The position numbers were made by a program, and so were the translations under genes. Positions 8,017-59,765 of a stretch of 64,000 bases of DNA are shown here, piece after piece; position 1 is the first letter of the stretch, and every line of letters starts with the position of its first letter. Under the pieces are notes generated by a model, which made no database searches, was not told where the DNA came from, and worked only from the letters and a program-made list of their open reading frames with translations. The stretch lies in assembly GCF_006345805.1 (NCBI RefSeq), contig NC_043006.1, positions 100,006,001 to 100,070,000 of the forward strand, read 5' to 3'. The DNA is from Octopus sinensis (Eukaryota).

Positions 8017-9861
<1,845 letters not shown>

Positions 9862-13246: not shown

Positions 13247-13440
13247 GGATAAATAACTAAATGGGATATGAAAGAGTAGAAATCAATAGAATGATGCTTT
13301 GAAAATACAAATGTGACACTGAAAGAATACAAAGGTGATGACCTGGACACTTGAATAGACATATTCATGTAAGCGGAGACAACTGAATAATATACATTAT
13401 TTACAATGGACGGATATTTGTCCTCATCTTGTTTGTTGTT

Positions 13441-13486
13441 ACCACAACATTTCGGCTGATATACTCTCCAGCCTTCATCAGGTGCC
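13441..13486 (-). ncRNA. Minimal hammerhead ribozyme motif in pLTR
   Basis: CAC-CTGATGA-A-GGCTG-gagagtatat-CAGCC-GAAAT-GTT-GTG. Confidence 0.7.
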
Positions 13487-13580
13487 CTGATAGAATTTTG
13501 AACCTGGTTTCTCATTCCTAAGGTATTTGTTGCTGATATTATTATTATTATTAATATCATTATTATTCATTTGAATGAAT

Positions 13581-13650
13581 TGCCTTGATTTGAACTCGCA
13601 ATCTTGGGGTTAGTAGCCTGCACTCTTAACCATTACGCTATGCTCGTGGG
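13581..13650 (-). other. tRNA-like Pol III head inside pLTR
   Basis: TAGCGTAATGG (A box), GG-CTACTAA-CC anticodon-like arm, GAGTTCAAATC (B box). Confidence 0.7.
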
Positions 13651-15265
13651 CAATTACAGAGTAAATTTTAGGGCTTATAAACTTAATATTTTTGTATTCC
13701 TCTTTAATACCAGTTCACATATTCTACTCCTATCTGTACTTTGTCTGCTTAAGAGGTTACTGAGTGTTAGGAAATGTGCTGTCTCTTTTAGTTTTCGTAT
13801 TTTCCATTGGTGTTCTATGTCTATTATTTTAACTTCATCTCACGGGTAAGGTGGTCTCCGCTTATACATACATTACCTTCTACAACTTACTTTTAAAAAT
13901 CTCCTTGTGTCGCAGCTTTACGATGTTCATCTACCCTTATTTAGAGTGGGCGACATGTTTCGTCTTTTATAACCTACTACAATAGCATGGGATGGAGTAC
14001 ACGCAGTCTTTGGTTATATACTCTTTTATTGGTGGTTTTTCACGAAGGAGATATTATCCAAGTGGTGTATTCTTCCTGCATACCGTACCGATGTTATATG
14101 GACCGCATATCATTTGTATCTTTTCCGAGAGGCCTTTCACATGGGGTAGACAGACTGCGGTCAGTTTATGGGTTTCATTTTCTCTCCTCTTCCTAATTGG
14201 AGTGGATAGTATATTTTGGGATAGTTGTTCTTTAATAGATTGTTACTTAGCTTGATCATTTCTTCGTGGTATGTGTCAGGATTGCTACTTATATTCTTTG
14301 TTCGATGTTTTAGGCACTGAGCAATCCCTCTCTTTACATTGTATGGGTGGTGGGAATTGAAGTTGAAGTATTGTCCAGTGACGTTTGGCTTGCGGTATAC
14401 GGATGCCATGAACCCGTGATTAGTGCGTGTTATTAATACATCCAGGAATGCTAGCTGATTGTCTTTTCCTTTTCCATTGTAAAGTGTATGGAAGGCTTTA
14501 TTCACTTTACATGATCTAGCAGTACTTGGACATGTTCTTGGTGTGGCCAGAGTATAAAAGTATCATCAACGTATCGAAGCCATAGGATTGGATTTATTAG
14601 TGTTGATCCCAAAGCCAAATTCTCAACGTATTCCCTGTATATATTGGCTATTAATGTGTGAAAATGGTGAACCCATAGCTAAACCCTCATCTTGTGGATA
14701 TATATCAGTGTCTACTCTGAAGTAGGTCAACATTCCCATCAGGTTTCCTATTGTTATAATAGTGAGATCTTTTAGATAGGTGTCCGTCACTAGTTTTTCT
14801 TGAATCACTGATAGTGCTTCATCAGTTGGGACTTTGGTGATCAGACATAACATTTAAACTTACCATCTGGTTGAATGCAATGGGGGTAACCTTGATCAAT
14901 TCTGTGAAGTGGGAAGAATTCTTCATATATGATGTTGACTTACCTGCTAATGGGCTGATTATATCCACAAGGAAGCGGCTCAGTAGATGACATGCCGAAC
15001 CTCTACCACTCACGATAGGCCTTAATAGAATACCATGTGTATGGAAAAGTGGAAACCACCTTATCCTTTGGGACGAAGTTCAAATAAGAGACAGATGACA
15101 TCACAGGAAAATACGAAAACTAAAAGAGGCAGCACATTTGCTAGGACACAATAATCACATAAGCAGACCCAGTGCAGATATAAGTAGAATATGGGAACCA
15201 TTATTAAGGTAGGATACAAAAATATTAGGTTTATAAACCTTAAAATTCACTCTGTAATTGCCCAC

Positions 15266-15324
15266 AGGCATATAGTGTAACGGTTAAGAGAGCGGGCTAC
15301 TAACCCCAAGATTGGGAGTTCAAG

Positions 15325-15388
<64 letters not shown>

Positions 15389-15497
15389 TAATAATATCAA
15401 CAAAAAAACCTTAGGAATGAAAACCCAGGGTTTGGTTCAAAATCCTACTAGGACACCTGATGGAGGCTGGAGAGTAAATCAGTCGAAACGTTGTGGT
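15266..15497 (+). ncRNA. tRNA-like head + (AAT)n + hammerhead module, inverted pLTR copy
   Basis: TAGTGTAACGG...GGGCTACTAACCC...GAGTTCAAGA; ACAC-CTGATGG-AGGCTG...CAGTC-GAAAC-GTT-GTG (core A9 mutated). Confidence 0.65.
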
Positions 15498-16858
15498 AAC
15501 AACAAACAAGATGGGGACTCATGTCAAAAATATAGAACAGACCTGCATAATATGTTTGGGCATATGAAATTTGAGGGAAATCTTATATATAAGTGTTCTT
15601 CGTGTATGTTCACCCTTGCATCTATATATCTGCATGAATATACACAGTAAGCATTATTTATATGCACGCATGCTCATATATATAAACGAACACGCGCGTA
15701 TATATATTTCAATGCACAACATTGTACTTACACATGCTTATATATGTATGAATATTATTCATCTGGATAGCATGTATTTGCATTCATAAACATTGCATGC
15801 ATATTAGTATATAAATGTACGCGTTGTACACTTGAAACGCATAAGTGTTTGTGTATATATTTTTGTGTATAAGCAGTGGAGAGGTAACGTGAAGTACACG
15901 CGATGACGTGAATCAGTGTCTGAGGTTTGAGAAGACAATGAGGCTTATTAATGCAAAGGTATTCATTTATGGATGCATGATACGTAGGCTGTATTCAACT
16001 TAAAGAAAAATATTTATAAATAAAGCAAAAGGGAGATAACAAATCTGAAACGTAGACAAGGCTGTAGTGGAAGCCTCAGAAAGGGATGACCAACAGAACT
16101 GAATTAATTAACTTATCGGCTTGAAATCTATTTGACGCAATTCCGTTCTGCTTTCATCCATTTTTTATTCAACACGGTGTATTTGATGCAAACAATTTCG
16201 TAATTCAATGTTTTTTTTTTTCTCTTCTCAAATAAACACGACTAAAATATTGGATTGTATTTTCTTCCTCGGCGACGAATTATATACATGAAAATGTTTT
16301 GAACTCGGTTATTTTTAAGAGTTCATTCTGGAGGAGGATTCTATTTCTAAAACACTTTTCTTCAAAAATTGCTGATTTCGATGCCGTTGATTTTGATCTT
16401 GAAAATCTAGAGATTAACGGCGACATTTGAGAGTCGTAGATATTCCAGAGGATTGACCCACTGTGAAGAGTGTTTTCAAATGCAAAAAAAAAATTATAGT
16501 GAGACAGATATTATGTAGATACAGGGAAAGGGAAATATAGCCTGCCTAATAAGCTTAGGTTGAGCTAGTGTGCATTCAGTTGGCCAATGGGATCAAGAAG
16601 TGAATTTGTGACAGTTATAAAACAAGTAGAGTGACTGGACATCGCGTTTAAATGTTAGAGTTTGAGTAGCTCCATGTATAACACGAGATTTTTTTTTATC
16701 GATGTAGCACTAATGTTTGTAAGCGTTTAACACTTCGATCACAGATGTAGAAAATAGAATTTTTTTACGGGGACATCGCCTGATACCTGTTACTGATATT
16801 GAAGTTATATCAGCAAGAACGGAAGTGGTATACTTTTCATGTCATCCTTAATTAAAAA

Positions 16859-43469: not shown

Positions 43470-43580
43470 ATTTTACATTATTTACATTATTTACATTCGA
43501 CGGATATTTGTCCTCATCTTGTTTGTTGTTAACACAACGTTTCGGCTGACATACCCTCCAGCCTTCTTCAGGTGTCTTGC
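43470..43580 (-). ncRNA. pLTR fragment with intact minimal hammerhead
   Basis: GACAC-CTGAAGA-A-GGCTG-gagggtatgt-CAGCC-GAAAC-GTT-GTGTT. Confidence 0.8.
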
Positions 43581-57790: not shown

Positions 57791-59329
57791 TGCTTTCACT
57801 ACATTTACACGTTCTCACCAGTGTATGCACTCAAATAGCTGCAGAGTGTTCAGCAGGGTTATCATGTCTTTGATAATCTGTTGGATTTTCTACCTTGTTT
57901 AATCCAAAACAACCATTCCAGTCACTGAACTTCTTTCTTACAGAATATTTCGTTATTTAAAGATATTGTCGTCTTCCCCTCTCCTAGAACTACCACAAGC
58001 TTCCATCTCCTTTACTTTCGGATTGCTACTAACTCTATTCTATGAGGTTCATTGCCTGGCTTTTTGCCTAACTCTTCGAAGCGACTCTAAGATCAAGCAG
58101 CTCAAATTTGGTACCGAAAGTAACGAAGACGTTCTGTCTCTATTCTTCAGTCAGGCAACTCCCGATTTGTGTATAAATGAGCCTTCCACAAGCTTGTATT
58201 TTCGACTATACATATGAATAGAAAAAAGAACTGTTTTGATAATATTTTTAAACCTCCCGTGCCTTGGCCATTTTGACATAGTTATTTGTCTTTCTATAAA
58301 GCCCAAACACCTTTCACATATTTCTATAATGCTATGGCGTCTGATAGTCTGACCACTTAGATGATATAATAGAGACGAGGCCATATACTCTCATGATGTT
58401 CATTTTGTTGTTTCTTGAGGCTAAAATGTGCTGCGATATTGGAACGGCGATGGATTTAGTAATGGTGATAATGATATTCATTTCCGCAGCTTCAATTCGT
58501 CGAATCTTTGCTGAAATATCTGTACGTCCCCTTAAGACAGTAGTTCTGCAAAAATAATTATTGGATCGTTTCATTCCCCCAAAAAGTCTTTAAGTCGTGC
58601 CCCAGGATGGCTGCAGTCTAATGAGTGAAAGATGTAAACGGGAAAAGGGAAAGATATGTATGCTTATGTACGAATGTAAGAATTATTTATATCATAGAAA
58701 ACTCAGTGAAATATCATCGACATGGTTACTACCAAGAAGTTGAAGAATAAAAGCGAATAAATTTAATAATCTAATAATATAAAATATATATTATTGATGT
58801 ATTGAATTTGTTTCTGCTTCCAGAGAAGGTAATGCATTCATCTTGTGGCAATTGGGACTAATTCGAATTTGGGAGAGGAGTAGAATCTCAACAATGAAGA
58901 ATTCTAAAATAATTCTTTATTTCCTTTATCAACAGAATTCTTAATTGCTGCAATTATTTCTCCTTCTGATTTGAAGTTGAGTCGTGTCGCTATCAGGCAA
59001 TTTCCCTGGAAGCAGAAATTATTTCAATAAATCCAGAGCTTATATTGTATTTAATTTATTCGATTGGATTCGTCTGTGTTCAAAAACGTAACTCAGTTGT
59101 TTTCCGTAGCATATTCTCGTGTGTGTCTGTGTGCATGTGTATTTGCATGTGTGTGTACGTGCGTATATCTGTATATATCTATCCTTCTATCTATCTATCT
59201 ATCTCTCTATCTCTCTATCTGTCTATCTATCTATCTGTGTGTGCGTGTGAATGTATGTGTATGCATATATTGTAATCGTTAATGACGGATTTTTATTACG
59301 TCCACTCTGGTATAGCAGAGAAGGTCTAT

Positions 59330-59765
59330 TCTATATTTTTGAGATGAGGAGTTCTGTAAATGATTGAAATTATTTACATTGGACGGATATGTGTCCACAT
59401 CTTGTTTGTTGTTACCACATTGTTTCGGCTGATTTACTTTCATCAGGTGTCCTCGTAGAACTTTGAACCCAACCCTGGGTTCTCATTCCTAAGGTATTTT
59501 TTGCTGATGTTATTATGCACTCGTGCATATAGCGTAATTGTGTAGAGCACAGGCTACTAACTCCAAGATTGCGAGTTCAATTTCAGGCAGTGCCTTGAAT
59601 AAACAATCTTAATAATATCAGAAAAAATACCTTAGGAATGAGAATTCACAGTTGTGTTCGAAATTGTACCAGGATACCTGATGAAGGCTGGTGAGTGAAT
59701 CAGCCGAAACGTTGTGGTAACAGCAAACAAGATGAAGAAACATATCCGTCCAATGTAAATAATGT
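59330..59765 (+). mobile_element. Palindromic ORF-less PLE derivative: antisense HHR arm + central tRNA-like head + sense HHR arm
   Basis: 59368-59515 is the reverse complement of ~59610-59765; tRNA-like 59523-59595; CTGATGA 59678, GAAAC-GTT 59706-59713. Confidence 0.85.

Follow-up and report, generated by a model that had tools for sequence, protein, structure and literature searches.

What kind of event leaves, in an octopus genome, a near-symmetric palindrome with a tRNA-like unit at its middle and hammerhead-like motifs on either side, and which element supplied the RNA? The question is raised by 437 bases at positions 59329-59765 of a 64,000-nucleotide stretch of Octopus sinensis DNA (RefSeq assembly GCF_006345805.1, contig NC_043006.1, positions 100,006,001 to 100,070,000, forward strand), referred to here as the window. 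An original prediction proposed that a transcript of RNA polymerase III (Pol III) had been mobilized by the reverse transcriptase (RT) of a Penelope-like element (PLE), i.e. that the repeat is a PLE-dependent short interspersed nuclear element (SINE). We find that the palindrome is two copies of a PLE 3' end, each 3'-anchored, joined head to head, and is not a fold-back of one unit. It probably arose as one PLE insertion, in which two head-to-head, 3'-terminal pieces were made from a short RNA. The short unit itself is the leader of the PLE (tRNA-like module, (AAT)n tract and start of the open reading frame, ORF) and not a foreign SINE with a borrowed tail. New here are the assignment of the tRNA-like head to the autonomous element, the identification of the arm with the ORF start, and a breakpoint test on randomly placed DNA.

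Two PLE 3' Ends Joined Head to Head

A profile of the PLE 3' end (705 positions, h1-705), built from the last ~700 bases of a PLE copy at 13394-15100 in the window and from 29 long genomic copies, was run with nhmmer; in this numbering the first base of the tRNA-derived module (tRNA +1) is h457. The right half of the palindrome matches h450-705 in the sense orientation and starts 7 bases upstream of tRNA +1, and the left half matches h554-703 in inverted orientation, the two meeting at 59516 (Table 1). The left copy has no tRNA-like head, its 5' end lying within the (AAT)n tract. Two pairs of inverted-repeat arms were identified, 59369-59438/59694-59763 (70 nt, 90% complementary) and 59439-59502/59622-59685 (64 nt, 84% complementary); 119 nt separate the inner pair, and the whole inverted repeat spans 59369-59763. 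The compact inverted repeat around a tRNA-like centre that had been described is seen in the arms, at 84-90% complementarity, and in the placement of the module between two hammerhead-like cores, but not in the repeat as a whole, which is asymmetric in that the head is present in the right copy only. A left copy with a full 3' end and a tail, and without the head, implies priming from its own 3' end and not a snap-back copy of the right half.

The Short Unit as the Leader of an Autonomous PLE

Among ten RT-anchored loci, nine carry the head region after the 3' end of the ORF, five of them as an unbroken h2-705 match, and the tenth matches only h2-297. The best-kept ORF (L145, 551 aa) stops at ~h375, some 80 bases before the head; it contains a GIY-YIG-type motif near its end, read by eye, and along its entire length it shares 56% identity with P0024, a PLE protein of 847 aa. 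RVT_1 is matched by the L101 ORF (1.4e-10) and by P0024 (5.7e-11), GIY-YIG is matched by P0024 at only E 0.23, and Pfam gave no match for the decayed ORFs of L145 and L182. In long copies, an RT followed by a GIY-YIG endonuclease is thus contiguous with the repeated end.

The other side of the unit was examined at the protein level. L019, a tandem copy, shows the order arm, tail, N-terminal domain of the ORF, with the last two adjoining. In L182 (1309-2511) the frame is open through the arm, and BLASTP aligns it from TPKEGWRVYQLKCCVNN to P0024 residues 18 onward. The protein-level alignment and the order of parts in L019 place the start codon directly after the (AAT)n tract, corresponding to 59638-59640 in the window. 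On this alignment, the "hammerhead arm" is the first ~41 codons of the PLE ORF, and insertions usually terminate, on their 3' side, ~123 bases after its start, or ~153 including the tail. Since RT-bearing copies carry the same module ~80 bases after their stop codon, the short unit is best read as the PLE's own leader. The palindrome had been called ORF-less; no long ORF survives in it, but each arm holds these first ~41 codons.

Searches for longer protein relatives returned only distant or fused forms, and a metagenome scan for P0024 relatives in which the head might be conserved upstream of the ORF confirmed none. A first look within the same genome gave at least 11,246 candidates for the RT part, at least 4,211 for the last 507 bases, at least 2,470 for the arm and at least 526 for the N-terminal part of the ORF, counts that are not comparable across query types; their course along the element fits heavy 5' truncation.

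A tRNA-Derived Module at the Head

The head of the palindrome copy has an A-box-like motif at +8 (two mismatches) and a B-box-like motif at +52 (three mismatches), which are the canonical tRNA positions. In most of 25 copies the A box has 0-2 mismatches and the B box 1-3, counted against consensus strings that we take to be the standard ones. When heads of at least 60 bases were aligned to 27 distinct genuine tRNAs of the same genome, 23 of 24 scored above the shuffled mean (z 2.1-8.0), the single exception being a misaligned row. These resemblances point to a module of tRNA origin. ARAGORN found no tRNA in the window or in 29 related loci, the Rfam tRNA model gave no match at the gathering threshold in the window, at E<=10 on the palindrome region (701 bases) or at E<=1 on 20 loci, and no cloverleaf was obtained by minimum free energy in three well-kept copies.

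The canonical box positions across 25 copies and the similarity of 23 of 24 heads to real tRNAs are what would be expected of a true SINE, i.e. a self-propagating, Pol III-transcribed lineage that merely shares its tail with a PLE partner. Such a lineage makes predictions about where copies begin and how short and long copies are related, and it is weighed below against both.

Distribution of 5' Ends

The 5' ends of copies were mapped in several samples. For the random sample, 770 kb were scanned with the profile, as 77 pieces of 10 kb taken from ten large contigs at fixed round coordinates, and matches were chained across microsatellite. The 13 copies with a 3' anchor begin at h440, 446, 449, 451, 460, 469, 472, 483, 487, 502, 574, 645 and 647. 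Nine of the 13 start at h438-487 and none further upstream, which has a binomial probability of 2.5e-8 under uniform breakpoints. The same 770 kb also holds two pieces of long copies without a 3' anchor (L092, h2-133; L139, h31-560) and one 3'-broken copy (L086, h463-626). The arm-anchored sample comprises 45 copies at 29 loci, picked by likeness to the right arm of the palindrome and so biased to its subtype. Thirteen of these start at h438-487, three beyond, 23 at h494-574 and six at h594-622, the number of ends per base at the head being far above the rate on either side. Taking both samples together, copies ending at the head outnumber those passing it by 22 to 3. The two short copies in the window conform to this pattern, starting just upstream of the head at h450 (the palindrome) and h449 (the copy at 9185-9571), as had been noticed from their sequence. 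The 5' ends do pile up at the head, and the breakpoint mapping that the original prediction called for yields a sharp peak there and not an even spread.

Random 5' truncation of full-length PLE cDNA, with starts at the head arising by chance, could be invoked given that PLE insertions are heavily 5'-truncated, as described in the available part of PMC8557442. It would also fit the ends of a first sample of 29 loci, which range between positions 490 and 1683 on a 2132-base reference, and the many copies that stop in or near the (AAT)n tract. However, the loci of that sample were chosen for covering a 507-base query and were thereby biased to long copies, which accounts for the spread. The concentration of nine of 13 randomly sampled starts within 50 bases, and the excess per base at the head in the arm-anchored sample, make chance truncation a very improbable explanation.

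Around tRNA +1 the ends scatter from about -27 to +6. Where the end could be fixed it lies at about -2, -2, -7, -8, -9, -14 to -17 and -18, with others at +4 and -27, and for most of the mapped ends the copy retains 2-18 templated bases ahead of +1, which match the sequence found there in the PLE itself. These data support a discrete RNA 5' end near the head, and we infer that the pile-up marks a real RNA end.

Could the end instead be set by RNA processing, either by RNase P cutting at a tRNA-like structure or by a halt of the reverse transcriptase? The tRNA derivation of the module would suit this explanation, as would the ends that fall inside the module (h460-502) and a second cluster of ends just 3' of the module and in (AAT)n, for which RNase Z or a structural block might account. 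RNase P, however, would give ends exactly at +1, in contrast to the 2-18 upstream bases retained by most copies, and the three well-kept copies are not predicted to form a cloverleaf. A halting polymerase, moving 3' to 5' on the RNA, would meet the 3' side of the module first. We consider processing or halting improbable as the origin of the 5' end.

Six copies (L033, L041, L051, L054, L056 and L057) start at nearly the same base, ~h586-597, with unrelated upstream DNA; this hot spot lies just before GGGTT..GTTC, ~10 bases after the start codon. Extrapolation from 13 copies per 770 kb gives ~46,000 copies in the genome, with a rough range of 21,000-74,000.

Short and Long Copies and the Choice of Polymerase

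A true SINE would be compatible with 5' ends lying mostly 2-18 bases upstream of tRNA +1, with the ~46,000 copies extrapolated and with the 22 to 3 ratio of head-ending to head-passing copies. It would also be expected to form a lineage separate from the PLE, as the original prediction would imply in its strong form, and this expectation was not borne out. Over ~200 shared bases, the nearest neighbours of short and long copies carry the same label in 30 of 60 cases versus 32.9 expected (p 0.78), with mean distances of 0.158, 0.141 and 0.155, and among 72 head columns a single one shows a frequency difference of >=0.4 between the two classes; the phylogeny is star-like, so this test has low power. 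Short and long copies interleave, and the head is not foreign to the autonomous element, being located, in the RT-bearing copies examined, after the stop codon and before the ORF that follows. Furthermore, among ~27 unique copies that bear the ORF start, five or six begin at the head (h443, 444, 450, 453, 460, perhaps 470) and run into the ORF. We therefore regard an independent SINE lineage as rather unlikely.

The long copies beginning at the head bear on the polymerase as well, because they imply that RNAs starting there can be long, as an mRNA made by RNA polymerase II (Pol II) would be. Five further ORF-start-bearing copies run beyond the head (h394, 276, 276 or less, 128, 2 or less), and the ratio of starts at the head to starts beyond it differs from that of the short samples (Fisher p 0.03-0.04). 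Judged from its A and B boxes, the module may direct Pol III to make the head-starting RNA, a proposal that we rate close to an even call, tilted slightly to the negative; a SINE-like reading with Pol III is plausible in this sense. The PLE's own mRNA might alternatively be started at the head by Pol II, which we hold to be a live but somewhat doubtful possibility, and other causes take the smaller share of probability that is left. The short unit would then be a retrocopy of the mRNA leader made from a 5'-proximal start site, since an mRNA beginning at the head and reverse transcribed from such a site would leave the same DNA without Pol III.

Combining the Pol III proposal with the leader assignment gives an autonomous PLE with a Pol III promoter of tRNA origin, placed ~125 bases ahead of the PLE's start codon, that spins off SINE-like leaders, a picture that we put forward tentatively from the sequence features. 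If the promoter is as proposed, a reverse transcription start ~41-51 codons into the ORF means that every source copy would shed a SINE-like leader.

Hammerhead-Like Cores within the Arms

Within the window the motif CTGATGA-N(12-34)-CGAAAC has two occurrences, one per arm of the palindrome and on opposite strands (Table 1); 100 shuffles gave an expectation of 0. Of the two, the right core is intact (CUGAUGA, bulged A, GGCUG/CAGCC, GAAA, ACGU, U) and, by reading, would fit the published description of the minimal type I hammerhead. Alignment with other copies in the window indicates that the left arm lacks eight bases, GGCTGGTG, which are the 5' strand of helix II, and that CGTT after GAAA has become CAAT, so that ACGT is mutated. 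The earlier observation that the left hammerhead had lost half of stem II while the right core was kept thus agrees with the arm alignment.

No Rfam hammerhead family was matched at the gathering threshold in the window, at E<=10 on the 701-base region or at E<=1 on 20 loci (69 kb). The names "hammerhead" and "tRNA" as used here are based on motifs and similarity and have no backing from family models. The right core lies in coding sequence, where it reads T-P-D-E-G-W. Copies extend 52 bases beyond the predicted cut, and the cut is therefore not the end of the element. Across h561-704 (58 copies) the arm columns are ~90% conserved and nearly flat, with no better conservation in the hammerhead core than around it.

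Conservation in the same alignment is lowest at CpG sites, e.g. in GAAACGTT and CCGTCC, the pattern that methylation-driven decay would leave. Matches to microRNA-type Rfam families were rejected as hairpin or microsatellite artefacts; the mir-2300 match at 59481-59643 (39 bits, gathering score 90) reflects nothing more than the pairing of the inner arm portions into a hairpin.

Insertion Signature and a Model for the Palindrome

Insertions of PLEs are described, in the part of PMC8557442 available to us, as frequently 5'-truncated, with a second copy, inverted and itself 5'-truncated, next to the 5' end and a tail of 30-40 bp at one end. All of these are found in the octopus family. An inverted, 5'-truncated partner adjoins the main copy in the palindrome (h554-703 versus h450-705) and in many other loci, including RT-anchored and ORF-start-anchored copies. 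For 15 genomic pairs, the 45 bases outside each outer end were compared, with mismatched flanks as the control: a shared flank word of 9-15 bp, the candidate target duplication, was present in eight of 15 pairs versus one of 210 mismatched-flank controls. Most of the 15 pairs have a ~30-base tail extension at one end only. At one locus (L199/L201; G000:C4:154.07 Mb) two ORF-start-bearing copies stand head to head, with 5' ends at h569 and h450, and a pair can thus consist of two long partners. In shape, the palindrome shows ordinary PLE behaviour, consistent with the report that minimal hammerheads paired on opposite strands 100-700 bp apart were taken as truncated PLEs (PMC4209133, as excerpted). 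The dependence on PLE machinery that had been proposed is upheld, in that the arms are the 3' end of copies bearing RT and GIY-YIG and the family displays the PLE insertion signature.

Long inverted arms might also suggest a DNA-level structure, such as a fold-back DNA transposon, one of the type of miniature inverted-repeat transposable elements (MITEs) or a local inverted duplication, and the sub-threshold matches to hairpin microRNAs (mir-2300) could be read in the same way. Such an origin is difficult to reconcile with arms that represent the 3' terminus and the beginning of the ORF of an RT-bearing retroelement, with inner junctions that vary from pair to pair (450/554 here; 477/529, 548/554, 549/572, 594/622 and others elsewhere) or with outer ends that are fixed and a tail that is one-sided. 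We consider its probability close to negligible.

For the anole PLE, the accessible text of PMC11167929 reports that both target strands are cleaved and extended, and that reverse transcription initiates internally, near the ORF start. By analogy with this in vitro work, reverse transcription of the short octopus RNA would have been primed on both strands of the cut target. Each cDNA would have started at an internal start site ~123-153 bases into the ORF and run toward the 5' end of the RNA. The right cDNA would have reached that end, just upstream of the tRNA-derived module, the left one would have stopped in the (AAT)n tract, and the two would have been joined in the middle.

Several observations weigh against this model. 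No target duplication was found around the palindrome at 59329-59765, where the longest shared word is 5, and an 11-base spacer separates its tail from the arm, whereas the tail abuts the arm in most other pairs. The two halves are unequally diverged: the right copy departs from the column majority at 27 of 244 positions (11%) and the left at six of 142 (4%), the arms differ from each other at 16 of 137 positions, and the median arm copy is 5% from a majority that is itself dominated by the biased arm-anchored sample. Two copies born together would not be expected to differ in this way, though two different template RNAs, at which the disparity hints, would explain it. At the head, the 5' ends are spread across roughly 30 bases instead of falling on one, and the further 5' hot spots at ~h530-575 and ~h586-597 imply that pile-ups can arise without an RNA end. 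Runs of T provide no help for Pol III: TTTT is absent from 21 of 24 head-bearing copies, but it is equally scarce in the 3' end of the ORF and the untranslated region, runs of >=4 T being scarce across the whole of the last 705 bases and present at the expected rate further upstream in the ORF, so the scarcity is not specific to the unit and does not discriminate. The silence of Rfam and ARAGORN on the hammerhead and the tRNA counts on the same side.

Other Copies in the Window

The features of the palindrome and of the related copies are collected in Table 1. The PLE at 13394-15100, whose sense 3' end contributed to the profile, reads there as an untranslated stretch, the tRNA-like module, (AAT)n and then the same arm as the palindrome. 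The copies in the window are dispersed or inverted, and none is in direct tandem, as would be required of a non-LTR (long terminal repeat) retrozyme. The insertion at 9185-9571 interrupts, by eye, a remnant of a Tc1/mariner-type transposase (~9073-9115 and ~9583-9700; W-P-x-S-S-P-D-F-N-P-M-E-H-L). Immediately upstream of the palindrome insertion, 59120-59260 holds GT-rich and (TATC)n-type microsatellites, with a 36-base register repeated seven times at a spacing of 8-12.

Table 1. Features of the palindrome and related copies, in window coordinates
Feature	Position	Strand	Basis
PLE tail, ~29 bases beyond the element's usual 3' end, left end only	59329-59357	-	Same ~30-base extension in other pairs
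11-base spacer, tail to left arm	59358-59368	.	Comparison with other pairs
Left inverted partner, h703 to h554, complete 3' end	59369-59516	-	nhmmer, inverted repeat, alignment
Left hammerhead-like core, damaged	59422-59446	-	Motif search and alignment
Right sense copy, h450 to h705, through to usual 3' end	59516-59765	+	nhmmer
tRNA-derived module	59523-59595	+	Similarity to tRNAs and box motifs
A-box-like motif	59530-59540	+	Within tRNA-derived module
B-box-like motif	59574-59584	+	Within tRNA-derived module
(AAT)n remnant and A-rich leader up to the ORF start codon	59596-59637	+	Tract long in other copies
First ~41 PLE ORF codons, ATG at 59638-59640, now stop-interrupted	59638-59765	+	Protein-level alignment of L182 counterpart
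Right hammerhead-like core, predicted cut after 59713	59678-59710	+	Motif search
Second short copy	9185-9571 (unit 9194-9531, h703 to h449)	-	nhmmer
Mini inverted partner of second short copy (tail and 7 bases)	9532-9571
Target duplication of second short copy, 11 bp, 10/11 identical	9174-9184 and 9572-9582
5'-truncated PLE with RT fragments including RYVDD	13394-15100	-
Inverted partner of the 13394-15100 PLE, h229 to h686, extends past head	15038-15525	+
Stub copy, h610 to h705	43484-43579	-

Comparison with Known Systems

The usual account of short elements borne by retrotransposons is a small-RNA head joined to a tail borrowed from a long interspersed nuclear element (LINE). The octopus short unit is instead the front piece of an autonomous PLE. 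Viewing the unit as a leader links three oddities of PLEs, namely internal initiation near the ORF start, head-to-head insertions and hammerheads, and it offers a natural source for non-autonomous repeats derived from PLE pseudo-LTRs. If the module does drive Pol III, the family would provide a rare instance in which the promoter of a SINE lies within its autonomous parent, parent and parasite being one sequence present in tens of thousands of copies in an octopus-type genome.

A literature search found no tRNA-derived module in a PLE and no PLE-borne SINE in cephalopods. Compared with the endonuclease-bearing (EN+) PLE insertions described in the available parts of PMC8557442 and PMC11167929, the octopus family has in common the 5' truncation, the inverted copy, the 30-40 bp tail, flank matches that at family level suggest target duplication, internal initiation near the ORF start and an ORF with RT and GIY-YIG. 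In particular, the 3' end of octopus insertions, ~123 bases (~153 with the tail) into the ORF, parallels the anole PLE (PMC11167929, as excerpted). The octopus family differs from the EN+ PLEs covered in those excerpts in that it has a tRNA-derived module between the stop codon and the next start codon, and most of its copies are only a ~250-base piece from the module to codon ~41.

The right core resembles the minimal type I hammerheads of PLE pseudo-LTRs, as they are characterized in the excerpted text of PMC4209133, with respect to the CUGAUGA/GAAA core, the short helix I, the longer helix II with a bulge on its 5' side, the tiny palindromic helix III (ACGU here) and the pairing of motifs on opposite strands 100-700 bp apart. 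In contrast, the octopus core lies inside the first codons of the ORF, its copies run on for 52 bases past the predicted cut, and it is unscored by Rfam. A precedent for a tRNA-derived, SINE-like element with a hammerhead is provided by Sm-alpha and Sj-alpha of schistosomes (PMC2770079, in the part available). They are likewise abundant and short, with a tRNA-derived part (tRNA-Gln-like by tRNAscan) and a hammerhead motif, but their hammerhead is canonical and was found by an Rfam-based search. Animal non-LTR retrozymes have been argued to derive from PLE pseudo-LTRs (Li, Clavereau and Pollet, 2026 preprint, 10.64898/2026.07.22.740005, as excerpted). In the portions available of that preprint and of PMC7761336 they are, like the octopus units, non-autonomous, hammerhead-bearing and related to PLE pseudo-LTRs. 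However, retrozymes are tandem direct repeats that give circular RNAs, whereas the octopus units are dispersed, are mostly in inverted pairs and have a tRNA-derived start.

A further comparison is with the octopus SINEs OK, OR1 and OR2, which are also short, tRNA-derived octopus repeats (Ohshima and Okada 1994, cited in PMC4758252, where the accessible text lists OR2 as a CORE-SINE). The short unit may be OK, OR1 or OR2 under another name. In Octopus vulgaris, a 2026 annotation describes, in its available part, a SINE and LINE expansion at a Jukes-Cantor distance of 0.065 and a PLE and LINE expansion at 0.2, and classes most recently active SINE families as "unclassified" (PMC13282606). On the leader assignment proposed here, tens of thousands of repeats in octopus-type genomes annotated by pipelines as unclassified SINEs or as hairpins would join a Penelope family.

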